Assembly (NCBI GenBank): GCA_022641095.1
Contig: JALCDB010000002.1
Location: 62,792-126,791 of the forward strand
Direction: 5' to 3'
From: Bacilli bacterium
GTDB taxonomy: Bacteria; Bacillota_I; Bacilli_A; RFN20; CAG-826
Length of the DNA stretch: 64,000 nucleotides
Shown here: one piece after another, positions 1 to 46,579 of the stretch
Position numbering within the stretch: position 1 is the first letter of the stretch
Layout of the letters: each line of letters opens with the position of its first letter
Notes under the pieces: generated by a model
What the model saw: only the letters and a program-made list of their open reading frames with translations
Told to the model about the DNA's origin: nothing
Database searches by the model: none
Program-made: the position numbers and the translations under genes

Positions 1-904
1 TGAGGACCCCCTCCCCATGCTGCGGATGTCGATTGCGCCGAAAACGGCAGCGCAAAGAGAACGGCTGCTGGACGCTCTTACGCAACTTGCGGATACTGAC
101 CCGCTTTTGCGCTGCGAGGTGGATTCCATCACCCATGAGATCATTCTTTCTTTTTTGGGCCGGGTGCAGTTGGAGGTTGTTTCCGCTTTGCTGTCGGAAA
201 AATACAAGCTTGAAACAGTGGTAAAGGAACCCACCGTCATTTATATGGAGCGGCCGCTCAAAGCAGCCAGCCACACCATCCATATCGAGGTGCCGCCCAA
301 CCCGTTTTGGGCATCCATCGGACTGTCTGTTACACCACTCCCGCTTGGCTCCGGTGTACAATACGAGAGCCGGGTTTCGCTGGGATACTTGAACCAGAGT
401 TTTCAAAACGCTGTCAGGGATGGTATCCGTTACGGGCTGGAGCAGGGCTTGTTCGGCTGGAACGTAACGGACTGTAAGATTTGCTTTGAATACGGGCTTT
501 ATTACAGTCCGGTCAGCACGCCGGCGGACTTCCGCTCATTGGCCCCGATTGTATTGGAACAGGCATTGAAGGAATCAGGGACGCAACTGCTGGAACCTTA
601 TCTCTCCTTCACCCTCTATGCGCCCCGGGAATATCTTTCCAGGGCTTATCATGATGCACCGAAATACTGTGCCACCATCGAAACGGTCCAGGTAAAAAAG
701 GATGAAGTTGTCTTTACTGGCGAGATTCCCGCCCGCTGTATACAGGCATACCGTACTGATCTGGCCTTTTACACCAACGGGCAGAGCGTATGCCTTACAG
801 AACTGAAAGGGTATCAGGCCGCTGTCGGCAAGCCAGTCATCCAGCCCCGCCGTCCAAACAGCCGCCTGGACAAGGTGCGCTATATGTTTCAGAAGATAAT
901 GTAA
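1..904 (+). CDS. tet(W): Ribosomal-protection tetracycline resistance protein, Tet(W)-like; C-terminal ~295 aa only, 5' end lies outside the window
   Basis: Translation (…[35 protein letters not shown]…[15 protein letters not shown]) aligns colinearly with the C-terminal domains IV/V of TetM/TetO/TetW-family RPPs. The exact allele call (W vs O/32) is from memory of the family. Confidence 0.8.
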
Positions 905-935
905 CGTCTTGCGCAATCGATTTATCACGCACGCA

Positions 936-965
936 TAGACAAAACGGCTCTAAAAGTGCTATAAT
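936..965 (+). promoter_or_regulatory. Near-consensus sigma70-type promoter, TAGACA-18 nt-TATAAT, immediately downstream of the tet(W) stop and upstream of the HTH gene
   Basis: TAGACA at 936-941 and TATAAT at 960-965 with an 18-nt spacer. GGAG ribosome-binding site (RBS) and ATG at 992 follow. Confidence 0.4.
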
Positions 966-991
966 TCTGAATAACAACTACGGAGTTTAAT

Positions 992-1183
992 ATGGACTAC
1001 GCCCGACTAATCAAAGAACTGCGTTCAAAAATGCTTTTATCACAGATGGAGTTCGCTGAGTACCTTGGCGTTTCTTTTTCTGCAGTCAACAGATGGGAAA
1101 AAGGTCGCTATGAGCCAACCATAAAAACAAAGCGTAAGTTGAAAGAGCTTTTTATTAAATATGGATTGGTGGATCGAGACTAA
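992..1183 (+). CDS. XRE-family helix-turn-helix transcriptional regulator (63 aa)
   Basis: MLLSQMEFAEYLGVSFSAVNRWEKG is a classic Cro/CI-type HTH. An RBS precedes it. Confidence 0.7.
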   Translation: MDYARLIKELRSKMLLSQMEFAEYLGVSFSAVNRWEKGRYEPTIKTKRKLKELFIKYGLVDRD

Positions 1184-1184
1184 T

Positions 1185-1841
1185 ATGGACTATAAAAAAA
1201 TAACGGAAAATATAAAAAGCGGATTCACAAAGGATCAACTAAAAAGCTTAGATTTGATCACCGGGTTTGATTCGCTCAAGCTCGCCAATGGTGGCGATAA
1301 TGATGCAGAAGGATATCAGATTTTCACCCCCGCTTTTATCGTGAAAGATATGGTCAAAGCGATAGGGGAGAAAGACGTTTTTAATCCGGATAAAACAGTG
1401 CTCGAACCGACATCAGGTGATGGGGCGTTCACTACTTATATTTTATTAAGAAGATTAGAACGTGCGTTCAAGGAAGATAAAGATGAATTCGAGATCCAGG
1501 CACTAAAGTGCTTGTCTACCATCTATTCTATAGAGATGGATAAGGATCTAATTATCAAGCAAAGAAACAACATCCTGACTGTCTTCACGATATTTGGAAG
1601 GGATCATAAAATCGATTATAGCGATGGGTATCTTGATCTCGTCCGCTGCATGATCCTAACAAATTTTATGTGGGCTATGTTCAATGCGGATATTCCTGCA
1701 ACGTTCTTAATAGTCGAGGTGGCATATAAGATGCCAGAAGCAGAAAAAGGAAAAATGAAGTCGTTAGAATTCCCCGTCTGGGATATATCTGGCAACGGCG
1801 TCACATATCACATGGAAGGAGCGGAGATTAACTATGATTGA
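1185..1841 (+). CDS. Small MTase-fold protein with N6-adenine MTase motifs X and I but no canonical (D/N)PP(Y/F/W) motif
   Basis: FTPAFIVKDMV (motif X-like), LEPTSGDGAF (motif I), YSIEMD (motif II-like). The position expected for motif IV reads ILTNFMW. An alternative in-frame start lies at 1161. The gene overlaps the next one by 8 nt (ATGATTGA). Confidence 0.5.
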   Translation: MDYKKITENIKSGFTKDQLKSLDLITGFDSLKLANGGDNDAEGYQIFTPAFIVKDMVKAIGEKDVFNPDKTVLEPTSGDGAFTTYILLRRLERAFKEDKDEFEIQALKCLSTIYSIEMDKDLIIKQRNNILTVFTIFGRDHKIDYSDGYLDLVRCMILTNFMWAMFNADIPATFLIVEVAYKMPEAEKGKMKSLEFPVWDISGNGVTYHMEGAEINYD

Positions 1842-3567
1842 TAAAAAGAAGAATGATGCTCTTGAAGCCGAACAAACCTATAAAACAGCTGTTGAATCAG
1901 CTAATGACTACATTGAGAACTTCGATATTTTAGAAACCATCACAAATGTTGGTAACGACGAGGTTTTCACACCGAGAAAAACGTGTGATATGATGCTCGA
2001 TTCTCTCCCGGATGAAGTCTGGCATAACCCGAATTATAGATGGCTGAACCCGGCCACCAAAAATGGCATTTTTGAAAGGGAGATCGCAATAAGATTAGAC
2101 GAAGGTTTAAAAGATGTGATTCCGGATCAAGAAAAACGCAGAAAGCATATCTTACAGAACATGATTCATGCTATTGGTCAAACTAAATTTACGGCCAACG
2201 TAGCGAGAAGAACACTTTATTATTGTTCATCCGCAAATAGGGCTTGTGACGGAATACTAGCCGAAGATGGACACTACGTTAATGGATACGCGATTGGAAA
2301 CGGAACGTGGTTTGCTGATGAAGAAGGCAATATTAAAACACCATGTACTGATCATGAATTTGTCGATAGTGCGGGACGAAGAATGCCATCTACATGCAAG
2401 GGCGAGGAAAGAAAAAAATATAAATGTAAATATTGCGGCATCAGTGGAGTCTCAAACTATAACGATGCAAATCAAAGAGAAAAATATGCGTACGAATTAA
2501 TCCATATTAATCATTTGATAATTGGAAAGCACATGAGCAATAGATTCTTTGGAGGTAACAAAGATATGAAATTTGACATTATTATTGGTAATCCACCTTA
2601 TCAACTTAACGATGGCGGTGCACAAGCCTCGGCCAAACCTATTTATCAGCTGTTCGTAGATCAAGCAAAAGCTTTAAATCCACATTATCTATGCATGATT
2701 ATTCCTTCTAGATGGATGGCTGGAGGAAAGGGCTTAGATGACTTCAGAGCATCAATGCTAAAAGATAGGCACATTCGAGTATTACACGACTATACTGATG
2801 CTAAAGAATGCTTCCCAAATAATGAAATAAAAGGCGGAGTTTGTTACTTCCTCTGGAACGGAAAAGAAGAAGGAAAGTGCAAAATTTATAAACATACTGA
2901 TGGCACCATTTCAACAAGCACGAGATATCTCAAAGAGGATGGTGTTGATGTTTTTATTCGTGATGAAAGACTGATTGAAATTTTAAATAAGGTTAAAGCC
3001 AAAAAGTTCAAATCTTTCATGGATATCGTATCGCCAAGAAAACCGTTCGGTTTAGCAGGTGATTTCTTTAAGGATCCAAAGAAATATGATCTCCCACCTA
3101 TTAGTGATAAAAAAATCGAAGGGGGAATAACAATCTGTGGTCTTGATGAACATTTACAAAGAGTAAAAAGATATGTTCCACAGGATTATCCACTCCCTAA
3201 AAAAACCTATTTGCATGGATACAAAATGTTTATGGCTAGAAACCAAGGAAGTGGCACATTCGGAGAACCTTTCTCTGTTCCAATGTTTGCATACGACAAT
3301 GAAATATGTACAGAAACTTTTATTGTTATAGGCACATTTAAAACTGAACAAGAGATGAAAAACTGTTATTCCTATATCAAAACTAAGTTTTTTAGAGCTC
3401 TAGTTGGCATCCGAAAATTAGATCAAAACGCATCTCAAAGCATATATGAATATGCTCCGTTGCTTGATTTTACTAAGCCGTGGAATGATAAAGAACTTTA
3501 TGCAATGTTCGGACTTAGCGATGATGACATCAAATTTATTGAAGAGAACGTTCAGGAGATGAATTGA
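1834..3567 (+). CDS. Gamma-class N6-adenine DNA methyltransferase (577 aa) with a Cys-rich insertion and a C-terminal target-recognition region
   Basis: EVFTPRKTCDMMLD (motif X), LNPATKNGIF (motif I-like), DIIIGNPPYQ (motif IV), then LCMIIPSRWMAGG as in TaqI/Eco57I-like MTases. GGAGG RBS upstream. Confidence 0.7.
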   Translation: MIDKKKNDALEAEQTYKTAVESANDYIENFDILETITNVGNDEVFTPRKTCDMMLDSLPDEVWHNPNYRWLNPATKNGIFEREIAIRLDEGLKDVIPDQEKRRKHILQNMIHAIGQTKFTANVARRTLYYCSSANRACDGILAEDGHYVNGYAIGNGTWFADEEGNIKTPCTDHEFVDSAGRRMPSTCKGEERKKYKCKYCGISGVSNYNDANQREKYAYELIHINHLIIGKHMSNRFFGGNKDMKFDIIIGNPPYQLNDGGAQASAKPIYQLFVDQAKALNPHYLCMIIPSRWMAGGKGLDDFRASMLKDRHIRVLHDYTDAKECFPNNEIKGGVCYFLWNGKEEGKCKIYKHTDGTISTSTRYLKEDGVDVFIRDERLIEILNKVKAKKFKSFMDIVSPRKPFGLAGDFFKDPKKYDLPPISDKKIEGGITICGLDEHLQRVKRYVPQDYPLPKKTYLHGYKMFMARNQGSGTFGEPFSVPMFAYDNEICTETFIVIGTFKTEQEMKNCYSYIKTKFFRALVGIRKLDQNASQSIYEYAPLLDFTKPWNDKELYAMFGLSDDDIKFIEENVQEMN

Positions 3568-3568
3568 T

Positions 3569-6500
3569 ATGAAGGTAGATGTCTATAGATCAACTGAGAT
3601 CAACACTTCTGATAGCGTTAAGATATCTGGCAAGACCAGACAGTTCTTCCTTGACGAAGCAAACGACACCGATCAAGATCTCATTCTCCTATATATGTAT
3701 ATATTGCCTTCCTTCCAGGGCCATGGCGTCAAGGTTGGCATGGCAAAATGCAGACCAGAAGAAACTTTCTGGCACGGCATTAAAGCCAGGATCGCGGAGC
3801 AAAAGCACGAGCTTGCTTTAACTGACGACCAATACAGCAAATATGGCCTCAAACGCGAGGTCGTTTACTGGGGCGTCTGCGTTGATGCCCACAATGAATC
3901 GTTTAAGGATTATCACGTCCACGATGAGATCATGCACAACTGTGCTGGGCTCGCCGAGAAAGAGCAGGAGTGGTTCCAGAACGTTCCTACTGAAGAACTA
4001 ATATCCGCCTTCGAAGCATGCAGAAAAAACGATGTTTCAAAGGATATTTACACGCCTAGAAAAGAACAGGCTAAGGTGATCGAGGATCTGAAGGAGTACT
4101 TCGGCAAATATCCAACCGGTCACAGGTTCCTTTTGAACTGCAAGATGAGGTTCGGGAAATCCTTCACGACCTACAAATATTGTGAGGAAGCCGGTCTCAA
4201 TAAGATCTTGATCTTAACGTTCATTCCGGCGGTTGAGTCCTCTTGGAGAGACGATCTCTGCCATATCAAGAAGGAATATAAGTATTTCACCGACTTCAAT
4301 CTCAGAAAGCCCACGTTCGATCTAAAATCGCACACTGAGCCCTATGTAGTGTTTTTGTCGTTGCAGAACTACTTAGGCAGGGATAGCCAAAGTGCCGATG
4401 TCAAAGCCAAGATCAAGAAACTGCAGGACGTTGATTTCGATCTAGTCGTTCTTGATGAATACCATTTCGGTGCCTGGAACACCAGAACCCAGGACACTTT
4501 CGAGGACCTTGATAAAGATTATCAAAAGAACCTGAAGGACACTAAGGACGTCATCGCCAAGTTTGCGATCAAGACGAAGAAGACGATCTGCCTATCCGGA
4601 ACGCCATTCAGAGCATTGGCCCGCGGCGAATTCAACAACGAGTCCAGCTCGACTTACTCATATTTCGATGAGCAAAGGAACAAATATCCGAAGAGCGAAG
4701 AAAACGACTTCACAGTGGTGGATCCTAAGTATGCCGAATTCCCGGATATGAAGATATTCGGCTATAACATGACGAAGCTATTCGGCAACCTAACCTCCAG
4801 CGTTTTCTCCGATGACAAGATGCTCGGAAACAAATATTTTTCATTGAATAAGTTCTTCGAGACCAAGAAGGACGTCAACTATAACGAGGATTACGTCTTC
4901 ATTTATGAAGAAGAAATAAAACAGTGGCTGGAAATCATCAAGGGTGCCTCTATCCACGGCGACAAATTCCCTTATTCCAACCCTAAGATGAAGCAGAATA
5001 ACAAGCACACCCTTTGGCTCATGCCTACGGTTAGTTCCTGTATAGCGATGGCCAGGTTGCTGAAAGCCGATGATTATTTCTGCAAATATCAAATCATCAA
5101 TCTATCGGACAAAAGCGTGGGGTCCGGAACGGATGCCTATGATTTCTTGATGGATAACATCCAAGCGGCAAAGAACACGAATAAACTCGGGAGCATAGCG
5201 ATCACGGTCAACAAACTGACGATCGGTGTAACGGTGAAGGAGTGGTTCAGTATCTTCGTTTTGAAGGATCTATCCAGCCCGGAATCCTATTTCCAAGCCA
5301 TCTTCAGAATCCAGACGCCATTCAAGAAAAACGGCCAAATTCTCAAAGAGAGTGGTTATGTTTACGACTTCAATATCGACAGGGCCGCTGCCTTGTTATT
5401 GAAATACGCCGAAGAGAGCTCAAGGGACACGAACTATACGAAGCTACAAATTGCTAGATTGATCGTTAAGTACCTGCCTATCTTCGTCAATGGCGACATG
5501 AGTCATCCGATTTCTGACAAGGTCTTCTATGAACTCGCCGAATATGGCGATGCCAGCGGCGTGCCGCTTTCAAGAAAGATCACAGACACTTCAAAAACCA
5601 CAAGGATGATGGATGACGAGGTGATTGCAGAGATGCTTAACGATAAAGAAGTAAGCGAGATCATTAAGCACGTCTTTGCTCATGCGAAATTTGGAAAAAC
5701 AAAAACACGCACAATCCCTCCTAAACCAGAAGACGGATTCCAGACCAAGATCGCCAAGGAAGGCCGCGACAAAGGCTATGCCTTAGGCTTGGAGGATTCC
5801 AAAAAATACGTTGACTTGGACGACAACGAAGTCCAGGCCGCTTTCGAGAAAGCAATCGAGGATTACGTGCTCGAGTATTGCTCCAAAGACTATGATGAAA
5901 ACCAGGTCATCTGGTATACGAACGGCTTCAAGAAAGGATACGAAGGCGGTGTCAACGCCCCGATCAAGAAGATTCAATGCGGAAAAGATGACGGCGTTAA
6001 GTTCGTGGATCAAGTCAAAGGCAAATTCGGACCTAATATCAAATATACGGAGGCTACGAAGCAGCAGATTGAGAACTTCGTCAAAGCCTATCTTAACGAT
6101 ATAAACAACATCCCTAAGGAATATAGGGGAATGCTCTACAAACGCTGGTATTGCGAGTCCTTTAGAAAAGCGGTAAGAAACGTCTTAACCCCGGTAGTGG
6201 ACAGCAAAGATAAGAATTCCGTTGAAGATGCCGATAATGTTATGAAGCATATCTTGGCCAGGCTGTTTGAATTCCTTTATATCTCCGTTTACAGAGAAAC
6301 AACCTTCCAGGAGATCTTCAGTAATGCTGACCCTAACGTTTTCTTAGAGGCTGTCGGTATCACGAAGAAGGACTTCGAGGTTTTGAATAAATATCACATC
6401 TTCCAAGAAGACGTTCTAAATAACTACATCCATGATTTCTTTGTTAACGAATCACTCGGATCAAAACTAGATCTCAATGACGCCAAGATCAAAGCCCAGT

Positions 6501-6907
6501 ACAGAAACAGCTTTGACTGGTTTGGCTTTGGTGTTGATGATGAAGGGGAAATCCATGTGGATGAGAATGTCGGAACTCAGATCATCAAAGATGAAGAACC
6601 CGAAAATGATGAGCAAGATATTGTCGAATCCGAGGTCGCTCCTGAATCTGAATCGATTATGGAAGAGGCCGCTGCAGAACCCGAACCAGAACCCGAGCCC
6701 GATCCGGAAATCGCTCCTGTTCCTGAACCAGTTAAAAAGGATCCGGTCGAACAGATAGAGGAATTGCTCCGAAAGAATCCTAAAGGAATGAAATCCGGCA
6801 AGATCGCCGAGCTTTTAGGCGTTAGCAAACGCGATATTAATAAGATCATGTACGCCAATAAAGACAAGTTTACGGTTGATTTTTTCTTCAATTGGAAACT
6901 TAAATAG
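3569..6907 (+). CDS. 1112-aa multidomain protein: N-terminal T5orf172/GIY-YIG-like domain, SNF2/SF2 helicase core, acidic PE-repeat linker, C-terminal HTH
   Basis: N-terminal LYMYILPSFQGHGVKVGMAK parallels the T5orf172 signature of the next gene. RFGKSFT (motif I), VLDEYH (DExH), LSGTPF (motif III), QAIFRIQT (degenerate motif VI). EPEPEPEPDPEIAPVPEP linker. C-terminal KSGKIAELLGVSKRDINKIMY. Confidence 0.65.
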   Translation: MKVDVYRSTEINTSDSVKISGKTRQFFLDEANDTDQDLILLYMYILPSFQGHGVKVGMAKCRPEETFWHGIKARIAEQKHELALTDDQYSKYGLKREVVYWGVCVDAHNESFKDYHVHDEIMHNCAGLAEKEQEWFQNVPTEELISAFEACRKNDVSKDIYTPRKEQAKVIEDLKEYFGKYPTGHRFLLNCKMRFGKSFTTYKYCEEAGLNKILILTFIPAVESSWRDDLCHIKKEYKYFTDFNLRKPTFDLKSHTEPYVVFLSLQNYLGRDSQSADVKAKIKKLQDVDFDLVVLDEYHFGAWNTRTQDTFEDLDKDYQKNLKDTKDVIAKFAIKTKKTICLSGTPFRALARGEFNNESSSTYSYFDEQRNKYPKSEENDFTVVDPKYAEFPDMKIFGYNMTKLFGNLTSSVFSDDKMLGNKYFSLNKFFETKKDVNYNEDYVFIYEEEIKQWLEIIKGASIHGDKFPYSNPKMKQNNKHTLWLMPTVSSCIAMARLLKADDYFCKYQIINLSDKSVGSGTDAYDFLMDNIQAAKNTNKLGSIAITVNKLTIGVTVKEWFSIFVLKDLSSPESYFQAIFRIQTPFKKNGQILKESGYVYDFNIDRAAALLLKYAEESSRDTNYTKLQIARLIVKYLPIFVNGDMSHPISDKVFYELAEYGDASGVPLSRKITDTSKTTRMMDDEVIAEMLNDKEVSEIIKHVFAHAKFGKTKTRTIPPKPEDGFQTKIAKEGRDKGYALGLEDSKKYVDLDDNEVQAAFEKAIEDYVLEYCSKDYDENQVIWYTNGFKKGYEGGVNAPIKKIQCGKDDGVKFVDQVKGKFGPNIKYTEATKQQIENFVKAYLNDINNIPKEYRGMLYKRWYCESFRKAVRNVLTPVVDSKDKNSVEDADNVMKHILARLFEFLYISVYRETTFQEIFSNADPNVFLEAVGITKKDFEVLNKYHIFQEDVLNNYIHDFFVNESLGSKLDLNDAKIKAQYRNSFDWFGFGVDDEGEIHVDENVGTQIIKDEEPENDEQDIVESEVAPESESIMEEAAAEPEPEPEPDPEIAPVPEPVKKDPVEQIEELLRKNPKGMKSGKIAELLGVSKRDINKIMYANKDKFTVDFFFNWKLK

Positions 6908-6916
6908 GTGACGAAT

Positions 6917-7579
6917 ATGGAACAAGAGAACTTTGGATATATTTATATTCTTACAAACCCGTCATTCCCGGATTACGTGAAGATCGGATACGCGGATGAC
7001 GTCAAATCGAGAGTGGAGCAGCTCAACAGAAGCGAGTGCACCCCATTCGCCTTTAGGATCTACGCCACGTATAAAGTGAGTGATCGCCTTAAAGACATCC
7101 CGGTCCATCAATTGATCGACATACTTAATCCGAGCTTGCGAAGCAAGGATGAAGTGGACGGGAAGCTTAGGGTGCGTGAATTCTATGCCATGCTCCCAGA
7201 GGAAGCATATTCGCTCCTCGAGAAGATTGCCAAGATCAACGGGTTAGAAAAGAACCTGGTCCTTTATAAGAAGACTAAGGCTGACGAGGCAGATGAGAAG
7301 GCCGCCGATAAGATCAGCCAATTAAGCAAGAATCGCCATCATTTCAGGGATTGCGAGTTTTCATCGAGCCTGACTGGGCACACATATATAGGCAAGACGG
7401 GCGATAACGGCACGCTTTGCATCATTGATAAACAAACAGGAGAGGAAGTTCCTAACAATTCCAAGCCTTCGAAAAAGGCTATTGTTAAGCAGGCAGTGGT
7501 GGACCTTGGCGGATCCGCCGATGGCCACGACACCCTCTATCAGCTGTACCATCAACTGACCAAGATCCTGGGGAAGTAG
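6917..7579 (+). CDS. T5orf172 (GIY-YIG superfamily-like, MUG113) domain protein (~220 aa)
   Basis: GYIYILTNPSFPDYVKIGYADDVKSRVEQLN matches the T5orf172 signature. The ORF track starts at a GTG at 6908; the ATG at 6917 has a GGTGA RBS. Confidence 0.6.
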   Translation: MEQENFGYIYILTNPSFPDYVKIGYADDVKSRVEQLNRSECTPFAFRIYATYKVSDRLKDIPVHQLIDILNPSLRSKDEVDGKLRVREFYAMLPEEAYSLLEKIAKINGLEKNLVLYKKTKADEADEKAADKISQLSKNRHHFRDCEFSSSLTGHTYIGKTGDNGTLCIIDKQTGEEVPNNSKPSKKAIVKQAVVDLGGSADGHDTLYQLYHQLTKILGK

Positions 7580-7592
7580 GAAGTGAATATTG

Positions 7593-8591
7593 ATGACCCC
7601 ATTAAACTACTCTCGCTTTTCACACATATTCTTCGATCACGCCATTTATAAGGATGTGACCGCTGTTTGCCGTGCGTTAATCGGAACTTTAGTCAACAAT
7701 GGGAATATAGAAAACTCGAGAGGCGAGATCTATACGATAAACAGCCAAGTAGCTAAGGAGTTCTACGATGGGACAGCCAGCATATATCCGGAATTAGCGT
7801 CCGGTGCTGATTATGTCCTTAGCAAGGATGAAGAATCCGACTCCATGTGCGAGATGATCCTCGAAGATAATGTCGCCGTTGCCCAGAGAAATGGCCTTTT
7901 TGATGACCTTCTCGAAGCCATTAAAGACGATGGTTTAATGAATGCTAGAACAAAGGCTGAGATGATCGGCTTATATGACGCCAAGGAATACGTGAAATTC
8001 TTTAGAGCGGCTTTCGCCTATGCCATGTCCACGGAGAACAAAACGGCTGCAAAAAAGGCGAAAAGAAAGGCACCATCAACTTTAAGTGAAAGAGTGGATG
8101 CGATCAAAGAGATGCTTGAAGAACTAAGACTTAAAAAGCCCGTTTTAATCGTGATTCCAGATGATCTGGAAGATAACGAAGTTATCTATGCAAGCGAGCT
8201 TTTTAAGGCTTACTCAGAGGATGCCATGGTGGCTTTCGCAACGAAGTCTGACCTTGTCGCCTATCCGAAATATGCCCGTGATTTTGAAAGGCAGAGAAAA
8301 GATTTCTATGCTGCCGAATCAATCAGGGTCGGGTTAAGGGACTGCCAATTGGAAGACAGCAACTTTGATGAGCTCAAAAAAGAAATAAATGACGGCGTGG
8401 AAATGACAGCCAGTGCTTTGTATAGTTCCGGCCTTGAAAAGATAAGATCGGTAATGGATAAGGCGGTCACCGTCCCGCTCTCATCTTTGCTGGCTTTGAT
8501 ACCTTCATGGATCGGGCCTTCAGAGAGAAAAGGCGTGGTTCACATGCTCGTCAATGACGGAAAGATAAAATGGGTGGACGAAGATGAATAA
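7593..8591 (+). CDS. Hypothetical 332-aa protein, first gene of a three-gene cassette (LmuA-position, no recognisable catalytic motif)
   Basis: ORF is coupled by an 8-nt overlap to the next gene. No motif recognised by eye. Confidence 0.4.
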   Translation: MTPLNYSRFSHIFFDHAIYKDVTAVCRALIGTLVNNGNIENSRGEIYTINSQVAKEFYDGTASIYPELASGADYVLSKDEESDSMCEMILEDNVAVAQRNGLFDDLLEAIKDDGLMNARTKAEMIGLYDAKEYVKFFRAAFAYAMSTENKTAAKKAKRKAPSTLSERVDAIKEMLEELRLKKPVLIVIPDDLEDNEVIYASELFKAYSEDAMVAFATKSDLVAYPKYARDFERQRKDFYAAESIRVGLRDCQLEDSNFDELKKEINDGVEMTASALYSSGLEKIRSVMDKAVTVPLSSLLALIPSWIGPSERKGVVHMLVNDGKIKWVDEDE

Positions 8592-9024
8592 GTTATATAA
8601 CTCCTCGTTTGAAATGGAACTAAGGACGCTCATGGTCCTTTATATCAGCCCTCTCGAATCCATGTCAGCAGACCAGATCTACTCGTTCGATTTCATCTGC
8701 TGCTACGGGGAGGATTTCGAAGTATCAGAAAATAACCTTCACGGGGACTCCGCGTATAAGTTTGGAGAACTGGCCCTGAGGAAGAGCGTGATCAACGATG
8801 CGGTCAAGGATCTGGTCGTCCGCGGTATGATCGATGTGGTCACCGGAGACGGCTTCAAATACAAGATCAACGATCGCGGGATCGAATTCATATCATCGCT
8901 GGATAACCAATATTCAGATTTATATACAAAGATCGCAGGCGATGCATTCACCAAATATGGGAAGCTCACCGAGCAAGAACTGCTAGCGATCATAAACAAA
9001 GCGGCAATGGGGAGGAATAAGTAA
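8584..9024 (+). CDS. Hypothetical 146-aa protein (middle gene of the cassette, LmuC-position)
   Basis: Translationally coupled on both sides (8591/8584 overlap; 9024/9027). Confidence 0.4.
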   Translation: MNKLYNSSFEMELRTLMVLYISPLESMSADQIYSFDFICCYGEDFEVSENNLHGDSAYKFGELALRKSVINDAVKDLVVRGMIDVVTGDGFKYKINDRGIEFISSLDNQYSDLYTKIAGDAFTKYGKLTEQELLAIINKAAMGRNK

Positions 9025-9026
9025 GT

Positions 9027-10784
9027 ATGCTTAAAATCACGAGATTATGGGCTAAATCAACAGACGGATCCATGTCGGAGATCCCTTTCACCGATGGATT
9101 GAATATTATCCACGGCCCATCAAACACCGGAAAGACTGTCATTGTCGACTGCATCGACTATATCTTCGGCGGCAAATTCACTCCAAATCCAACTCTAAAC
9201 CTCGAAGTGGTGGGAATGGATATGGATGCAAACGGGCATCATTATCACCTAAGTAGGGCATTCAATAGTCCTAACGTCCACGTTGAATCGGACGATGATA
9301 ACATCAAAGACGGAGATTACAGCTCACAGAAAAAACCTTCGCTTGGAGATATATATCTCCGTATGCTTGGAATGGAGCCTCCGATCAAGATCCTGTCATC
9401 GCTTAGCTATACCTTCCAGAACCTAACGTTTAGGGAGTTCTCCCATACCATCGTTTTGAAAGAGGATGACATAAGGGATAGAAAAAGCATTCTTATGCCA
9501 ACCCAGAAGACGTCCGAGACCGTCCTCAAATCGGCGGTACTTTATTTGATAAATGGGCTCACCTACGCGGATCCGAACATCGAGAGCCCTAAGGAGCGTG
9601 CGAAAAGGAAAAAGATCCTGGCGAAATATATCAACGAGAGGATCGGCAAATATAAAACCCTCATAGAACAATATGAGAAGGACAAAAAAGAAGGCTCTGA
9701 TCAGTTCAAGACATCGATTGACGATATTTTGGGCCAAATCGAGTCCACGCAAGGCCAGTTGAACGATAATATCGCCGCTTCGGGAAAACTATCTGGCGAG
9801 TTGATGGAAATCAGCGACAAGATCGCCGAATGCGAGAACCTTGGTGACAAATATACGATTCTTCATTCTCAATATGAGTCCGATCTCCGCAGAATGCAGC
9901 TCATCATAGATGGCGAAACGCATGCGGACGAAGTCGAGAAGATCACTAAGTGTCCGTTCTGCAACGGAGAGCTGCCTAAAGAACAGGAGCAATCCTGCGT
10001 TGAAGCGGCACAAGCTGAATTGCTTAAACTGATCCCTCAAATCAAGGACCTCGAAGATGCTCAGGGTGATCTAGTCAAGGAAAAGGAAGAACTCCAAGCC
10101 AAGAAAGCCGAACTTGAAGGAAAGATAAATGAGCTCGAGGCCAAGATCAACAGCGAGATCAAACCGCTTTTAGCAAAGCTAAGGAATCAACTCAACCTTT
10201 ACAAGGAATCTATCCATAGCGAGGCGGAATATGAAAGCGATAAAAAGATCCTCGCCGATTTGGAGAACCAGCTACGCGAATTGACCGAGGAAAAAGTCGA
10301 GAACGAACGCTTTAATCAGCTCGAGTGCTTCGATGACAGGTTCATCAACACGATAACCAGATATCTCAGAGAGGCATTGGCCGCCTCGAATTACGAGGGT
10401 GCCGAAACATGCATATTTGACATTAATCAGTTCGATGTCAGGGTTAACGGCCAAATGAAACAGCACGAAGGCGAAGGCTACCGCGGATTGCTTAATTCGA
10501 TCACGGCTGTCGCGTTCCACAGGATGCTGCTAGACAACGCCAAATATAAACCTGGATTGCTAATCATGGATTCGCCGATCCTGTCATTGAAGGAAGCGGA
10601 TAGTGTTCCGTTGGACGACTCAATGAAGAAGGGGTTATTCAACTACCTGGCACAGACCGCCGAGAACATGCAGATCATAGTGGTGGAGAACGAGCTGCCT
10701 GAATTCGACAGCGAGAAAGCCAACCTGATCCATTTCACAAAAGACGACAATGGCCGCTACGGCTTCATATCAAACGTCAGATAA
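9027..10784 (+). CDS. SMC/Rad50-like ABC ATPase with a central coiled coil bearing a CxxC hook-like motif (Lamassu LmuB / DUF3732-like)
   Basis: Walker A IIHGPSNTGKTV. Long heptad-rich middle region with CPFCNG. C-terminal GEGYRGLLNSITAVAFHRML…PGLLIMDSPILSLKE (Walker B/D-loop-like). Confidence 0.6.
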   Translation: MLKITRLWAKSTDGSMSEIPFTDGLNIIHGPSNTGKTVIVDCIDYIFGGKFTPNPTLNLEVVGMDMDANGHHYHLSRAFNSPNVHVESDDDNIKDGDYSSQKKPSLGDIYLRMLGMEPPIKILSSLSYTFQNLTFREFSHTIVLKEDDIRDRKSILMPTQKTSETVLKSAVLYLINGLTYADPNIESPKERAKRKKILAKYINERIGKYKTLIEQYEKDKKEGSDQFKTSIDDILGQIESTQGQLNDNIAASGKLSGELMEISDKIAECENLGDKYTILHSQYESDLRRMQLIIDGETHADEVEKITKCPFCNGELPKEQEQSCVEAAQAELLKLIPQIKDLEDAQGDLVKEKEELQAKKAELEGKINELEAKINSEIKPLLAKLRNQLNLYKESIHSEAEYESDKKILADLENQLRELTEEKVENERFNQLECFDDRFINTITRYLREALAASNYEGAETCIFDINQFDVRVNGQMKQHEGEGYRGLLNSITAVAFHRMLLDNAKYKPGLLIMDSPILSLKEADSVPLDDSMKKGLFNYLAQTAENMQIIVVENELPEFDSEKANLIHFTKDDNGRYGFISNVR

Positions 10785-10802
10785 AACGTTATATAAGAAC
10801 AC

Positions 10803-10834
10803 GCCTCATCACGCAAAGTGGTGGGGCTTTTTTC
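10803..10834 (+). terminator. Rho-independent terminator closing the nine-gene block
   Basis: GCCTCATCAC-gcaaa-GTGGTGGGGC hairpin (with G·U pairs) followed by TTTTTTC. Confidence 0.5.
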
Positions 10835-10907
10835 ATGTCCGAAAACAGTCTACTTATTTTCACTTATTTTGCACTTATCCTGGCTTTTTGAGTAATCGAA
10901 ATGACCT

Positions 10908-10941
10908 GGGTTAAGATGGATCCGTGGCCGATATAAAGACC
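10908..10941 (+). promoter_or_regulatory. Copy 1 of a conserved phage regulatory element (GGTTA…GTGGCCGAT(A/T)TAAAG…), upstream of the sigma-like gene
   Basis: GGTTAAGATGGATCCGTGGCCGATATAAAGACC. Compare the copies at 15851 and 40018. Confidence 0.35.
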
Positions 10942-11118
10942 ACATAAAACTTCTCGTTGAAGAGATGGGCCCATCGAAACAGCGGGATGCATCGCGGGTT
11001 CCTGGAAAGGGATCACAGCAATGCCTCCTGTTTTCAAAATGCCTTTAAAAGGCAGAAATAGGCCGATCGCTCCGCTTTGCATCCTGCTCCTCAAACGGGA
11101 GAAAGGACCAGCAAAGCT

Positions 11119-11661
11119 ATGACAAACAACGAAAAACCAAAGATCGTAATTGACGACCCATCATTACTCAAACCGACAGAGGACAGACCTTACCCTTACC
11201 AGCTCGAAGGCACGAACATCATCATCTACTTATCGGAGAAGGACTACACCCCGATCCACCGCATGGAGGAAGCCGAACGAATGGCTTCCAGACGCGAGAG
11301 CAGATGCCTGATCCCCGCCAAAGAGCGTGGCGAATGGATGAGGTGCCAGGGTGACTGCTCACAGTGCCCCCGCACCCGCACAGGTCGTCCTCTTTCTTTA
11401 GATCAGCATGCAGAAGAAACGGGAAACGAGCCGGCAGGGGATGACGATATCGCCGCCGAACTGGACAAAAAGGAGCGTTTAGAGAGCCTTTTGTACGCCA
11501 TCCCTGAATTAGATCCAATCGACCAGAAAATCGTGTCCCTGTACCTGAATTACGCAACCGAGAGCCAAATAGCTGCCGAGTGTGGGGTATCGCAGCCCGC
11601 GATAAACAAAAGACTGAAGAATCTCGTCACCAAGCTCAGGGAAATCATCAAAAAATCATGA
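11119..11661 (+). CDS. Sigma-70 region-4-like / phage transcriptional regulator with a Cys cluster
   Basis: C-terminal IVSLYLNYATESQIAAECGVSQPAINKRLKNLVTKLRE is a sigma region 4 HTH. CQGDCSQCP cluster. The track ORF starts at 11077; the ATG at 11119 is preferred. Confidence 0.5.
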   Translation: MTNNEKPKIVIDDPSLLKPTEDRPYPYQLEGTNIIIYLSEKDYTPIHRMEEAERMASRRESRCLIPAKERGEWMRCQGDCSQCPRTRTGRPLSLDQHAEETGNEPAGDDDIAAELDKKERLESLLYAIPELDPIDQKIVSLYLNYATESQIAAECGVSQPAINKRLKNLVTKLREIIKKS

Positions 11662-23193: not shown

Positions 23194-23976
23194 ATGTTCG
23201 AAAAGGTTAACCCATCTCACCCAGACAAGATTGCCGACAGAATCGCAGGAGCGATCGTTGACCTCGCGTATCAAAAAGACATTAATCCCAGGATCGCGGT
23301 GGAAGTTTTAATTGGCCACGGCATTTGCCACGTCATTTGCGAAACCTCTGTCCATATCAAGAAGAAGGACGTCAAGGCGGCGGTCGACAGGATCACGGGT
23401 GGGATCGAGCTGGATTACTCCGAGTTCCCGCAGGATGTTCATCTATCCAACAACCAAGCCGGGAAGTTTAGATGCGGCGATAACGGGATCTTCAAAGGGG
23501 TGCCAGTCACCGAAGAACAGAGGAGATTGTCCGATCTGGCCCGTTCGATCTACAAGGAATACCCGTATGATGGGAAATATATCCTCGATGGCTATCGCTT
23601 GATCGTATGTCAAAGCAACGCAGCTAAATCAGAACTTGAATACAAGATCCCTGGAGCGGAGATTAATCCGATCGGGGACTGGACCGGAGGCACTGACGTG
23701 GATACCGGTGCAACGAACAGAAAGCTTGGATCTGATATGGCCGATTCCGTAACGGGAGGAGGTCTTCATGGGAAGGATCTCAGCAAAGCTGACGTGAGCG
23801 TGAACATCTACGCATTCCTCAAAGCACAAAAGACCGGAGAGCCGGTCATCTTATCATGTGCCATCGGCGATGAGTTCATTGACGGGAAGCCTTATGGCGA
23901 GATCGTCTGCATCGCCAGGGAATATATCAAATCGGTCGGAGGGTTCGAGAAGTTCGCAGAGTGGGGATTGGTCTGA
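23194..23976 (+). CDS. Truncated MetK-like protein (S-adenosylmethionine synthetase homolog, 260 aa)
   Basis: SHPDKIADRIAGAIVD matches MetK GHPDKI(A/C)DQISDA. GDNGIFKG and GGGLHGKDLSKADVS match the MetK GG(G)AFSGKDPSKVDRS loop. Confidence 0.5.
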   Translation: MFEKVNPSHPDKIADRIAGAIVDLAYQKDINPRIAVEVLIGHGICHVICETSVHIKKKDVKAAVDRITGGIELDYSEFPQDVHLSNNQAGKFRCGDNGIFKGVPVTEEQRRLSDLARSIYKEYPYDGKYILDGYRLIVCQSNAAKSELEYKIPGAEINPIGDWTGGTDVDTGATNRKLGSDMADSVTGGGLHGKDLSKADVSVNIYAFLKAQKTGEPVILSCAIGDEFIDGKPYGEIVCIAREYIKSVGGFEKFAEWGLV

Positions 23977-24739: not shown

Positions 24740-25876
24740 ATGTCCTATGAAATAAATCTAAAAGTTAACAAAAACGGCAAGCTTGAGCCGCCAAGCAAAG
24801 ACGAGGTCTTGACGATTTCGGTCTTCAAAGAAAGCAAGAGGGTGAAGCTCCTATTCACTGTCGATGAGGAGATTGACGATGAATATCATTATTTGAAATT
24901 CACCAACGCAAGAACCTCCTACCTATATAGAGTCCACAATAACGAATTCGAGATCCCTAAAGCGGTGACTGCATACGAGGGGGTCTGGGAATTGTCGTTC
25001 ATCTGCTGTGACGAACCGGCCAACTCCGATAATACGATCACGGCCGATTATATCTACGCTTCCGAGCTTTTGGCCTGCGTCATCAAACGCGGGAATCTCG
25101 GGATCGTATCCTCAACCGAGGAGCAGAGATTAATCAAGCAGATAGTGGAGGGGACCTTCGATTCTTTCACGATCCCTAACACCTGCTCGTACATCACGTC
25201 CTATTTCTTGAATAACTACACGCAGGAGTTCGGCCTTTATATCCCTGCCTCGGTTACCCTGATCAAAGATCACATCTGCTACAACTCAGGATGCACATCG
25301 ATCACATTCGAAGAGGGATCCAGCCTAACAACGCTGGAAGATTACGCCCTTTATCGAATCTTCAACGTCAGGTCTATCGTGTTCCCTAAGTCGCTATCCT
25401 CATGGGGCAAATATAACTGCGGCTACTGCGGATTCGAGGATATCTCGTTTGAAGCGAACTCAAACCTCCGCAGCCTTACGAGCTATGCCTTCTGGAACTG
25501 CACCGGCCTTAAGAGGCTCACCTTGCCGGATAAGTTGCTAAGCTTCACAGGCAACACGAACGTGATCAAGGACTGCTCGGCACTGGAGGAGATCTGGTTC
25601 CCTAACACGATAACCACAGCGATTCCGCAGAACGCGATCGCCGGGTGCGACTCGTTGACGAACATCCATCTCCAGACGAGTTTCAATATCTCCGCCAACT
25701 TCAGCAACTGCACCAACCTTTCAAGGGAGTCAATCGTTAACATTTTCAACTCATTGAAGGATCTAACTGCTGCGGGGCTCGCCTCGAAGGCACTAGTGCT
25801 TGGGTCCACCAACCTTGCGAAGGTCACGGAGGAAGAGCAAAACATCGCATTAAACAAAGGCTGGTCATTGGCCTAA
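24740..25876 (+). CDS. BspA-type leucine-rich repeat (LRR_5) protein
   Basis: Repeated C-x-x-L-x-x-I-x-(F/L)P..(L/V)..IG..AF motifs (ICYNSGCTSITFEEGSSLTTLEDYAL…FWNCTGLKRLTLPDKL). Confidence 0.6.
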   Translation: MSYEINLKVNKNGKLEPPSKDEVLTISVFKESKRVKLLFTVDEEIDDEYHYLKFTNARTSYLYRVHNNEFEIPKAVTAYEGVWELSFICCDEPANSDNTITADYIYASELLACVIKRGNLGIVSSTEEQRLIKQIVEGTFDSFTIPNTCSYITSYFLNNYTQEFGLYIPASVTLIKDHICYNSGCTSITFEEGSSLTTLEDYALYRIFNVRSIVFPKSLSSWGKYNCGYCGFEDISFEANSNLRSLTSYAFWNCTGLKRLTLPDKLLSFTGNTNVIKDCSALEEIWFPNTITTAIPQNAIAGCDSLTNIHLQTSFNISANFSNCTNLSRESIVNIFNSLKDLTAAGLASKALVLGSTNLAKVTEEEQNIALNKGWSLA

Positions 25877-40436: not shown

Positions 40437-40638
40437 GAAGATCGAATCCTATCTCTCCTCTTTTAAGGTCGCTGAAACCATGTTCAAAAAGGGCGTGATC
40501 AATGATGGGGAACTCAGAAAAATAGAAGCCGAACTAGCCAAGAAATACGGCCTGCCATCGAACTCAATTGTCCGAATTGACTTGCTAAGTTCTCTTACCA
40601 GAGAAAACATGAATTCGGGTGATATAAATGAAAGTTAA
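40423..40638 (+). CDS. Hypothetical small protein (71 aa)
   Basis: ORF overlapping the neighbouring genes. Confidence 0.3.
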   Translation: MEVSKKIESYLSSFKVAETMFKKGVINDGELRKIEAELAKKYGLPSNSIVRIDLLSSLTRENMNSGDINES

Positions 40639-41941
40639 AGCATTAAAAGCTTACAAAAAACTGCCGAGCAAAAGAAGGGTCGCTGCCTATGCCAGGGTCT
40701 CATCCGCCAAGGACACGATGTACCATTCGCTTTCTTACCAGATCAGCTATTACAACGCACTGATCCAGAAAAGAAACGACTGGCTCTTTTGCGGCGTTTA
40801 CGCGGACGAGGCGTTGAGCGGCACCAAGGATACTAGAAAAAACTTCCAAAGGCTGCTCCAGGATTGCAGGGATCACAAAATCGACCTGATCATCACTAAA
40901 TCGATCTCCAGGTTCGCAAGAAATACAGTGACACTGCTTGAAACTGTCAGGGAACTGAAGGATCTCGGGATCGAGGTATATTTCGAAGAGCAGAATATCT
41001 GGTCGCTATCCGGCGATGGGGAGCTGATGCTTTCGATCCTAGCATCCTATGCTCAGGAAGAGGCCCGATCGGTATCCGAGAATATGAAGTGGAGGATCAA
41101 GAAAGACTTCCAGGAAGGGCTCATCTGGGGAGGCGACCATTGCTACGGCTACAAAGTAGTGAACCGCAGGCTGGTGATAAACCCGGAAGAAGTCGAGCTC
41201 GTTAAAAGGATATTTGAAATGTACGTCAGCGGTATCGGCGACAGAGCCATTGCCACGCAATTCAACAAAGAGGGGATCCCGACCCACCAAGGCGGACCTT
41301 GGAAACAGGAAACGATCAGGGGAATCCTAAGGAATAGGAATTACACCGGTGATCTCATCCTCCAGAAAACCTATAGCTCGGACTACATAAACAAGACCAA
41401 TAAATACAATCGCGGCGAAAAGGACCTATATATCGTTGAAGATGACCATGAACCCATTATCTCTAAAGAGATGTTCGCCAAGGCCGCGGAGGTACGCAAG
41501 AACCGAGTCGAGAAAAAGCACGGCGGACTAAGAACGAAAATTAAGAGGCCATTCGATGACCTGATCGTTTGCGGAACCTGCGGAAAAGGCTACCGATTCA
41601 GGACGGGACCATACAGGGATAGCTATATCTGTAGGAACTTCGCTGATTACGGAAAATCGGCATGCCAAAGTAAGCAAATCCCGGATCGAGTCTTAAAAAA
41701 AGTGACCGCCGAGGTGCTTTCGATACCTGAATTCGATGAAAGCGTCCTTAGGGCGAATATATGCAAGATAGTGGCCAAGAACGGAAATTTGCTCGAATAC
41801 CACTTCATAAACGGCGATGTTAAAGAAATCCACTGGGACGACCCTAAGCGATCCGATGGGTGGACCGAAGAAATGAAAGCCGCAGCAAGACTCAAAGCGA
41901 AAGAAAGACAAGAAAGGAAGGAAAAAGAATGCCAAAAGTAA
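40628..41941 (+). CDS. Large serine recombinase (resolvase/invertase N-terminal domain + recombinase domain + zinc ribbon)
   Basis: VAAYARVSSAKD with catalytic Ser, …ITKSISRFARN…, and a C-terminal Cys cluster (CGTCGKGYRF…). Confidence 0.85.
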   Translation: MKVKALKAYKKLPSKRRVAAYARVSSAKDTMYHSLSYQISYYNALIQKRNDWLFCGVYADEALSGTKDTRKNFQRLLQDCRDHKIDLIITKSISRFARNTVTLLETVRELKDLGIEVYFEEQNIWSLSGDGELMLSILASYAQEEARSVSENMKWRIKKDFQEGLIWGGDHCYGYKVVNRRLVINPEEVELVKRIFEMYVSGIGDRAIATQFNKEGIPTHQGGPWKQETIRGILRNRNYTGDLILQKTYSSDYINKTNKYNRGEKDLYIVEDDHEPIISKEMFAKAAEVRKNRVEKKHGGLRTKIKRPFDDLIVCGTCGKGYRFRTGPYRDSYICRNFADYGKSACQSKQIPDRVLKKVTAEVLSIPEFDESVLRANICKIVAKNGNLLEYHFINGDVKEIHWDDPKRSDGWTEEMKAAARLKAKERQERKEKECQK

Positions 41942-45945: not shown

Positions 45946-46051
45946 TTAAGAATGAGGTTATCGTTTCCCTTGCGAAAGCCGTTGTGCGTTCTATAATATA
46001 GTCATAATAAGAACGGGTCGTAGACCCAAGAGTTTAAGAAACTCATTGATT

Positions 46052-46077
46052 ACACCCAAAAGGGTGTTTTCTTTTTT
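46052..46077 (+). terminator. Rho-independent terminator downstream of the dGTPase-like gene
   Basis: ACACCC-aaaa-GGGTGT followed by TTTTCTTTTTT. Confidence 0.5.
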
Positions 46078-46579
46078 AATGCGTTGTGCCTATCGTCTTG
46101 CTCTACGTCGTTTAATAAACATATGATTATCATCGGTGTTGTCAAATCACCTTTTGCGATTGCATCATGACGATGAGTTAGGCGCGAACGAAGATGGTTC
46201 CTCAGTTTTCCGCGTTCGCTTTGAATCGCAAACATCGCAACGATCTTTAACGTAATGTTTCAAAAATAAGACATGCGAATAGGGGGCTGAACGCATACTA
46301 TTTCAATTCATGCCAATCTTAGGATTTATCGATGTTTTTCAACAATAGATGGCAGCAAAAACAAAAACCGTTGATTTTTGATTTCCGCAAAATAAAATAA
46401 AACAAAAGGGTTAGCATATGCTAAGAAATAATATTCTTTTGGTAAAAGGCGTTAATAAGAGACGCGTTCTTTGGTGGGGCGGCCGCAGCGGTCGTGGATT
46501 TGCGGATTGTGGCTGGATTGAGGTTCCGCATGGTTTTCTCGAGCCCGCCGCAAATTAAAGAGAGTTTTGCAAAATCGCA

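Follow-up and report, generated by a model that had tools for sequence, protein, structure and literature searches.

A short-type Lamassu cassette with a predicted all-alpha domain in the effector slot of LmuA, carried in a Heliusvirales-like prophage of a Bacilli bacterium

One family of defence systems goes by the names ABC-3C, type II Lamassu and DdmABC (10.1101/2025.06.23.660979, PMC10586767); Haudiquet et al. (2025) split it into long and short types (PMC12663957). In the short type, the ATPase LmuB is ~600 aa long, has a Walker B motif of the form hhhhD[Q/S/T/E], and carries 0-2 CxxC zinc hooks (PMC12663957); the hook is a known trait of many LmuB proteins (PMC12663957, PMC10586767, 10.1101/2025.06.23.660979). 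According to the published cycle, a LmuB dimer and LmuC sequester monomeric LmuA via its C-terminal domain (CTD), until DNA ends release LmuA and tetramerisation through the CTD activates its N-terminal domain. The structural basis for this sequestration and release is cryo-electron microscopy of the Vibrio cholerae, Bacillus and Salmonella systems (PMC12663957; 10.1101/2025.06.23.660979). Here, we describe a 3.2-kb, three-gene cassette of this family that lies in a stretch of 64,000 nucleotides, hereafter the window, from a Bacilli bacterium (assembly GCA_022641095.1, contig JALCDB010000002.1, positions 62,792 to 126,791). Its gene for LmuA encodes an all-alpha N-terminal domain (N-domain) in which we recognised no enzymatic effector.

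A Lamassu cassette of the CTD6-MC2 clade

Judged from their sequences, the three genes encode, in the order LmuA, LmuC, LmuB, a short-type Lamassu/ABC-3C system that belongs to the CTD6-MC2 clade. All three proteins matched the corresponding PADLOC models, LmuA at E 4.4e-54 (PDLC03857, residues 23-333), LmuC at E 2.5e-45 (PDLC03875), and LmuB at E 4.8e-163 (PDLC03867, residues 4-584). In Pfam, residues 196-327 of LmuA are PF20282, the CTD6 of ABC-3C systems (E 5.7e-37), LmuC is PF20288, the ABC-3C middle component MC2 (E 3.6e-37), and LmuB has weak matches to AAA_23 and SMC_N. NCBIfam gave sub-threshold SMC/Rad50 matches to the P-loop and the coiled coil of LmuB, with coiled-coil matches extending over residues 195-427. 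When genomes were scanned with the LmuA alignment, the order LmuA-LmuC-LmuB and its spacing were found to be kept in ~45 of 50 loci, which come from Bacillota, Mycoplasmatota, Bacteroidota, Desulfobacterota, Pseudomonadota, Spirochaetota and other phyla. With hidden Markov model (HMM) E-values between 1e-37 and 1e-163 and a gene order that is repeated in ~45 loci, we do not regard the cassette as a chance arrangement.

The LmuB of the window fits the short type in its length of 585 aa, its Walker B segment (LLIMDS) and its single CPFC at residue 309. An alignment of 32 LmuB orthologues from the retrieved loci contains a CxxC in every sequence, in 31 of them as CPxC, and in each it is the sole CxxC near the midpoint of the protein. 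Conservation in the same set extends to Walker A, to the D-S-P of Walker B and to a QxIxxEN motif. The segment GEGYRG may, from its position ahead of Walker B, be an ABC signature-like motif. A sequence search of solved structures with LmuB returned nothing useful. The genes themselves are closely packed, with an overlap of 8 nt between lmuA and lmuC and a gap of 2 nt between lmuC and lmuB. The ATG at 7593 is also the start in a database protein (P0001) that is identical to the LmuA of the window and occurs on five contigs. Downstream of lmuB, a terminator-like hairpin has a 10-bp stem with 6 GC pairs and a TTTTTT tail.

A preliminary description of this DNA had already proposed a Lamassu-like architecture, and had put the three tightly coupled reading frames at 332, 146 and 585 aa, in agreement with the open reading frame (ORF) list. 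The Walker A motif, the midpoint hook that it compared with that of Rad50, and the LLIMDS segment can all be read in lmuB, and the invariance of the CxxC among the orthologues bears out the comparison. The family assignment is likewise upheld by the LmuA, LmuC and LmuB profiles, whose use had been recommended there, by the Pfam CTD6 and MC2 matches, and by the gene order. Two of its suggestions have to be dropped. The C-terminal head of LmuB had been likened to DUF3732, and the Pfam DUF3732 model gave no match to LmuB at E <= 0.1; the choice between a Lamassu and an ABC-3C system was a false one, as both are one family. The same description had considered that the homologues might lie in neighbourhoods with no defence-island association. 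In fact, genes resembling a restriction-modification system (RM-like) and a T5orf172 gene matching PDC-S57 are adjacent to the cassette, its location is a prophage, and related phages carry it in a variable, exchangeable slot.

We found no recognised effector activity (nuclease, Sir2, protease, lipase, etc.) in the N-terminal domain of LmuA. This does not disqualify the system as a Lamassu, as an effector-less clade is among the published members of the family. The subtype is, moreover, already catalogued, since the 2023 PADLOC model for LmuA spans the N-terminal domain. PADLOC would already annotate the cassette as Lamassu, and the cassette itself is not a discovery: it belongs to a known defence family and a modelled subtype, and its one unusual part is the domain in the effector slot.

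The N-terminal domain of LmuA

We ran AlphaFold2 with an alignment of 97 LmuA sequences. In the resulting model, an eight-helix N-domain spans residues 6-146, with a mean predicted local distance difference test (pLDDT) score of 94.9, and a linker with a pLDDT of 72-91 connects it to the CTD. The N-domain is acidic, with an isoelectric point (pI) of 4.6 and a family median of 5.3, and its core is hydrophobic and conserved. Mean pairwise identity is 20% in the N-domain as against 37% in the CTD, and falls to 16% in the linker, the most variable region of LmuA. Across the 97 sequences, the N-terminal 190 residues have no column that is invariant or 90% conserved, and the N-domain has no invariant polar residue; nearly all conserved columns fall within the CTD, where E196, Y199, R235, A241, E242, G314, C316, H317 and W327 are nearly invariant. 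Within one LmuA subfamily, D113 and N149 reach a conservation of 90% or more.

Neither the LmuA of the window nor its 97 relatives had a Pfam or NCBIfam match outside CTD6, and residues 1-195 of the window protein contain no other PADLOC domain. Foldseek searches of PDB and BFVD gave no significant match for the N-domain, and a sequence search of solved structures with the LmuA family profile returned nothing useful. The three top Foldseek matches in PDB were solved LmuA chains (9nxx_D, 9uxh_C and 9uxl_C), with 9hqx_A in eighth place, at non-significant E-values of ~0.4-2; these matches presumably arise through the CTD. By analogy with the solved systems, CTD6 is presumed to be the module for docking and oligomerisation. 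The preliminary description had seen no Cap4, Mrr, Sir2 or protease domain in the first protein, which agrees with the database scans. It had also suggested a new effector domain, and here a distinction is needed, given that the domain is already in databases (PDLC03857, >100 clusters) and that its function is unassigned. The structure prediction and fold search that it had recommended gave a confident all-alpha model and left the domain unrecognised.

Four specific identities for the N-domain were considered and rejected. Scans with Pfam and NCBIfam, both of which we take to contain a SMEK model, gave no SMEK match in the window LmuA or the 97 relatives. SMEK has been described as a nuclease domain (PMC10810196), and the N-domain is all-alpha. 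A HEPN domain was rejected for want of an Rx4-6H motif, as judged by inspection only, and a restriction endonuclease fold because there is no beta-sheet in the model. An EAD-type homotypic adaptor would call for a second copy of the N-domain, and none was present in any locus.

The domain is nevertheless common. A scan of 1.84 billion cluster representatives yielded 1325 relatives of LmuA at E<1e-3, and more than 100 representatives (50%-identity clusters) align over the full length and thus share the whole architecture. An HMM of the N-domain recognises the LmuA in ~30 of 48 CTD6 loci, the remainder including weak Mrr-type LmuA matches (P0017, L016), and across the loci examined the N-domain type of LmuA was found alongside intact LmuC and LmuB. 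On these sequence counts, the helical N-domain is the commonest partner of CTD6, and it is covered by the PADLOC model. Its high pLDDT, its conserved hydrophobic core, and its retention in ~30 of the 48 CTD6 loci and in >100 clusters lead us to regard it as a folded module under selection. Two loci depart from the usual layout. In that of Mycoplasma imitans (L013, 7158-8846), only a 167-aa CTD ORF is left and no LmuC or LmuB was detected, an apparent decay; in L042 (8446-12336), LmuC is truncated and ~1.7 kb are inserted ahead of LmuB, an apparent disruption. We also observed that another PADLOC LmuA model, PDLC03852, aligns to four LmuA proteins (P0019, P0021, P0022 and P0023) from about residue 100-140, upstream of the Pfam CTD6 boundary. 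This suggests that LmuA proteins with different effectors may have the linker and the final helices of the N-domain in common; on this alignment, perhaps only residues ~1-100 would make up the variable module proper.

The N-domain also occurs outside Lamassu. Twenty of the 97 LmuA relatives match the PADLOC model PDLC00164 (HamA1/HamA, DUF1837; 490 positions), with a best E of 6.1e-11. The match is colinear, residues 1-156 of the N-domain aligning with model positions 1 to about 155-161, and in no case reaches the DUF1837 part. Published HamA variants have an additional domain at the N-terminus (Cap4, peptidase, or an unidentified "X"), and their DUF1837, which lacks catalytic residues, is a proposed scaffold (PMC11914072). 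A second occurrence was reached when phages were searched for the N-domain with tblastn, which gave one weak match and led to the Heliusvirales phage PV036457.1 (locus L056). The 460-aa protein encoded by the first gene of its cassette carries the N-domain (PDLC00164 positions 3-180, E 3.3e-29; N-domain HMM, E 7e-13) and continues as a Cys-rich region with a helical C-terminus behind it. The 557-aa ATPase from this cassette matches PDC-M68B (1e-18) and LmuB (3e-13). By eye only, the Cys-rich region looks HNH-like. The cassette, which occupies the same phage hotspot, has the look of a Lamassu-like variant that is as yet uncharacterised. Searches for further architectures gave one 100-aa fragment only in a 5.8-billion protein set (N-domain profile) and no match in plasmids (tblastn); the solved-structure sequence search with the 460-aa protein returned nothing useful. 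Based on the matches to the HamA model and in PV036457.1, we consider the N-domain to be a mobile module that heads the effector subunits of three or more architectures. As for the window LmuA being a Hachiman HamA, the DUF1837 part is never matched and no HamB-like gene is adjacent, so that we are dealing with a shared N-terminal module and not with membership.

The defence array and the prophage

Features of the window, and of one related phage locus, are collected in Table 1.

Table 1. Features of the cassette, its subunits and its surroundings (window positions, except in the last row)
Feature	Position	Strand	Remarks
tet(W) 3' end	17-917		99.9% identical to plasmid-borne copies of Corynebacterium and Limosilactobacillus
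Promoter-like site	936-965		heads seven co-directional abutting genes
RM-like module	1161..6907	+	split Eco57I-like methyltransferase (1161-1841, 1834-3567), then 3569-6907
Helicase / type IIG-like protein	3569-6907	+	1112 aa, acidic PEPEPE tail
T5orf172 (GIY-YIG-type) gene	6908..7579	+	Pfam T5orf172 6e-11; PADLOC PDC-S57 5.8e-59
lmuA	7593..8591	+	332 aa from ATG 7593 (TTG at 7590 would give 333 aa); effector-slot subunit
LmuA N-terminal all-alpha domain	7593..8042	+	residues 1-150, eight helices; predicted fold
Lys-rich linker and one helix	8043..8177	+	LmuA residues 151-195, between N-domain and CTD
LmuA CTD6	8178..8573	+	residues 196-327; Pfam PF20282; helical in AlphaFold2 model
lmuC	8584..9024	+	146 aa; middle component MC2
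lmuB	9027..10784	+	585 aa; short-type SMC/Rad50-like ABC ATPase
Walker A GPSNTGKT	9114..9137	+	LmuB residues 30-37; GpSnTGK[ST] in 32 orthologues
CPFC zinc-hook motif	9951..9962	+	LmuB residues 309-312 of 585, coiled-coil midpoint
GEGYRG	10470..10487	+	LmuB residues 482-487; GkGyra in orthologues; ahead of Walker B
Walker B LLIMDS (hhhhD-S)	10557..10574	+	LmuB residues 511-516; D515, S516, P517 conserved
Intrinsic-terminator-like hairpin and T-run	10803..10836	+	19 nt past lmuB stop; best candidate in 850-11200
Siphovirus-type prophage resembling Ca. Heliusvirales	about 11000-43600		host Bacillota genome
SAM (S-adenosylmethionine)-synthetase-like gene	23194-23976		in prophage
BspA-type leucine-rich repeat protein	24740-25876		in prophage
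Two tandem large serine recombinases	40628-43509		in prophage
Cassette of L056 (PV036457.1), positions of that locus	4995-10450		460-aa, 79-aa and 557-aa LmuB-like ATPase genes, then type III methyltransferase

The cassette closes an array of seven genes (two for methyltransferase, one helicase-like, T5orf172, lmuA, lmuC and lmuB) that ends at the hairpin. Similarity to tet(W) stops at 917, 13 nt past the stop codon, and this gene fragment lies directly upstream of the defence array in the same low-GC element. Proteins of the RM-like module match Pfam Eco57I (3.7e-29) and, in PADLOC, MTase_II (1.4e-52) and REase_MTase_IIG (1.4e-29). An Erysipelotrichaceae metagenome-assembled genome (L005/L006, 1206-7289) has the same two-gene split of the methyltransferase and a nearly identical RM-like module (E 0 to 2e-191), yet its Lamassu proteins are only ~36% identical to those of the window. 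The difference between the two modules indicates modular exchange within the island.

The T5orf172 gene stands 10 nt upstream of lmuA in the window element (L001-L003). A T5orf172 gene also precedes this type of LmuA in L005/L006 (7304-7999 in L005; diverged) and in M. imitans L013 (7158-7832), whereas a T5orf172 HMM found none within ~8 kb in the other ~25 loci with this type of LmuA. In L005/L006, it accompanies the RM-like module that is nearly identical to that of the window, while the Lamassu proteins there are only ~36% identical. Because of its absence from ~25 loci and its association with the RM-like module, we take T5orf172 to be a neighbour of the cassette and not a component.

Beyond the hairpin, the prophage has replication-side genes (sigma-like, exonuclease, Gp2.5-type single-stranded DNA-binding protein [SSB], PolA, primase-helicase, SNF2, ParB-methyltransferase) and structural genes (TerL, portal, major head, tape measure). 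Host genes (DegV, NusA) appear at ~49-50 kb, together with a jump in GC content from ~0.46 to 0.58. Between the recombinases and these host genes, the region 44584-48532 is still low in GC and holds the genes for an ABC transporter and for a dGTPase-like protein with an HD domain, which could represent additional cargo or another islet. The complete phage PV036421.1 (Ca. Heliusvirales, host [Clostridium] innocuum) encodes a homologous LmuA with N-domain and CTD6, LmuC, and LmuB with CPFC, directly upstream of the same sigma-like/exonuclease/SSB/PolA module as in the window. In nine further loci (L007-L012, L017, L021, L024), the cassette adjoins, in divergent orientation, the same DUF2800/Enc34-type SSB/PolA module. 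Given that the position is the same in related phages and that PV036457.1 carries a different cassette there, we conclude that this family of temperate phages has an exchangeable slot next to its replication module. A megablast search of the phage collection with positions 1100-11100 of the window gave no match.

A proposed mechanism, its alternatives and known systems

Our preferred reading, to which we assign a probability of roughly 80%, is that the cassette is a short, single-zinc-hook Lamassu which a Heliusvirales-like prophage carries in its accessory region, and that the helical N-domain provides a non-enzymatic output after release of LmuA. By analogy with the published cycle, the coiled coils and the CPFC hook would hold two LmuB chains together, and LmuC together with the CTD6 of one LmuA would dock on the pair, so that LmuA is held as an inactive monomer. 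When a phage or plasmid invades, its DNA ends or replication intermediates would be bound by the LmuB heads, which would release LmuA and let it oligomerise through its CTD. The clustered N-domain would act stoichiometrically, with a protein more probable than DNA as its binding target, and would stop the infection or the cell. We favour stoichiometric protein binding because the N-domain is acidic, diverges fast and is without catalytic residues, and a non-enzymatic effector is the most likely reading of the domain, for which its all-alpha fold and want of invariant polar residues also speak. The searches and the model establish the family, the motifs, the gene order and the phage setting, as well as the fold class and conservation of the N-domain; that this cassette goes through the same cycle, with the helical domain as its output, is inferred.

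Several considerations weigh against this proposal. Defence activity, complex formation and DNA-end sensing would all be carried over from other subfamilies, and in the reference systems LmuA has a CTD7 or CTD12 together with Cap4, and LmuC is MC3. Neither the LmuB nor the LmuA family has a solved relative that is detectable by sequence, and the Foldseek matches to LmuA chains begin at E ~0.4. The window LmuA itself does not reach E 1e-3 against PDLC00164, as just 20 of its 97 relatives do. Since the N-domain precedes DUF1837 or a Cys-rich region elsewhere, it could be accessory or regulatory, which would leave LmuA without an output domain. There is also a precedent among short Lamassu systems, "Clade O", which has "seemingly lost the effector domain" (PMC12663957) and with which the present family may or may not coincide.

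The alternative that follows from these last points is a system that senses and acts without a dedicated effector: the N-domain would be accessory, stabilising DNA ends or exerting autoinhibition, and LmuB, LmuC and LmuA would together block the DNA ends or replication intermediates of the invader. Such a role is suggested by the contact between the LmuA N-terminal domain and the DNA end in the BcLmuAB-DNA structure, by the lack of catalytic residues in the N-domain, by the separate nuclease-type or Cys-rich domain that follows it in the other two architectures, and by the intact LmuB and LmuC of the short-Lamassu clade with the seemingly lost effector (PMC12663957). We nonetheless think it rather unlikely, as the acidity of the N-domain fits DNA-end binding poorly, defence needed the catalytic residues of the effector in every Lamassu tested (10.1101/2022.05.11.491447; PMC12663957), and an N-domain with a conserved fold is retained in >100 clusters. 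An effector acting in trans seems distinctly improbable to us. Here, the N-domain would be an adaptor that recruits a separate enzyme, the candidate being the GIY-YIG-type T5orf172 protein, whose gene lies directly ahead of lmuA in the window element, in L005/L006 and in L013, and within one terminator-bounded array with the Lamassu genes. Its absence from the other ~25 loci speaks against such a partnership, as does the lack in any locus of a second N-domain copy that could serve as a homotypic partner; its movement with the RM-like module suggests that T5orf172 is part of that module or a stand-alone system (a PDC-S57 candidate).

We hold it to be just as improbable that the N-domain is a cryptic enzyme or a pore-forming toxin, activated by oligomerisation and of a fold class to which no activity has been linked. 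The domain does occupy the slot of the nuclease, Sir2, protease and lipase domains in other LmuA proteins, and with no known fold relative its function is not readable from the structure. The conservation of D113 and N149 in one subfamily counts in its favour, but N149 sits where the last helix ends and is thereby suggestive of a helix cap, and across the 97 sequences, at a pairwise identity of 20%, no column of the N-domain is >=90% conserved. By inspection, there are also no hydrophobic transmembrane-like segments. Least likely of all, and in our opinion barely credible, is a non-defence function, in which the cassette would be a phage-owned SbcC/Rad50-like accessory to recombination or replication. 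LmuB does descend from SbcC-like proteins (PMC12663957), and in related phages the cassette always adjoins the exonuclease-SSB-PolA module, by which such an accessory might be placed. However, there is no nuclease partner of the Mre11/SbcD type, and all three proteins match Lamassu-specific models. Furthermore, the slot is variable, PV036457.1 having a different cassette and a type III methyltransferase there, the same cassette occurs with a Mrr-type LmuA in some loci, and RM-like genes flank it in the window.

To the preferred reading of a released, non-enzymatic LmuA output we would add a wider scenario only tentatively, as we find it doubtful in its entirety. In this scenario, the N-domain would be exchanged between CTD6-type LmuA proteins, a PDC-M68-like system (that of PV036457.1) and HamA, and would be a non-enzymatic binder of a host or phage protein that is activated by clustering and diverges in an arms race. 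The cassette would then be a swappable item of Heliusvirales phages in inter-phage competition in the gut.

The interest of the cassette lies in its being a compact, 3.2-kb test case for a widespread Lamassu subtype that has intact sensor subunits and, in the effector slot, a folded domain lacking an enzymatic signature. Mechanistic work on Lamassu has so far dealt with nuclease or lipase effectors, and immunity from an SMC-like sensor without a recognisable enzyme poses a question of its own. The main description of the Heliusvirales lineage does not mention defence cargo (PMC11283538); the cassette adds such cargo, in an exchangeable replication-side slot of Heliusvirales-type gut phages.

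Among characterised systems, the closest are the short type II Lamassu systems, such as DdmABC of V. cholerae (LmuACB with Cap4) and Lamassu-Lipase of E. coli; we found no experimentally tested member of the present CTD6 subtype in the literature searched. The cassette shares with them the three-gene A-C-B operon, a LmuB of ~600 aa with Walker A, a hhhhD[QSTE] Walker B and a coiled coil, a small LmuC, and a LmuA that likewise consists of an N-terminal output domain and a C-terminal docking domain. The single CxxC hook is shared with the Lamassu-Lipase clade. The window LmuA has CTD6 and its LmuC is MC2, in contrast to CTD7 and MC3 in V. cholerae, and its N-domain is all-alpha, shows no catalytic signature, and is not Cap4, Mrr, Sir2, protease, lipase, HNH or SMEK. 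Rad50 and SbcC resemble LmuB in the split ABC head, the antiparallel coiled coil and the CPxC hook at its apex, but the coiled coil in LmuB is much shorter (585 aa for the whole protein), there is no Mre11/SbcD partner, and the HMM similarity is weak and sub-threshold.

Clade O of Haudiquet et al. (2025) resembles the present family in having intact LmuB and LmuC, a LmuA without a recognised effector, and a distribution over many species. The window LmuA is, however, not truncated but full-size (332 aa), with a confidently folded N-domain of 150 residues, and the identity of this family with Clade O is unconfirmed. Hachiman differs in its sensor, which is the helicase HamB there and an SMC-like ATPase here, and in the DUF1837 domain of HamA, which has a PD-(D/E)XK fold and no counterpart in the window LmuA. 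Even so, HamA of type I-B/C/D (PDLC00164) is homologous over the N-terminal 155-180 model positions and is likewise the effector subunit of a DNA-sensing NTPase system; part of the value of the cassette thus lies in an N-domain that is common to effector subunits of the Hachiman type and to others of the ABC-3C-like kind.

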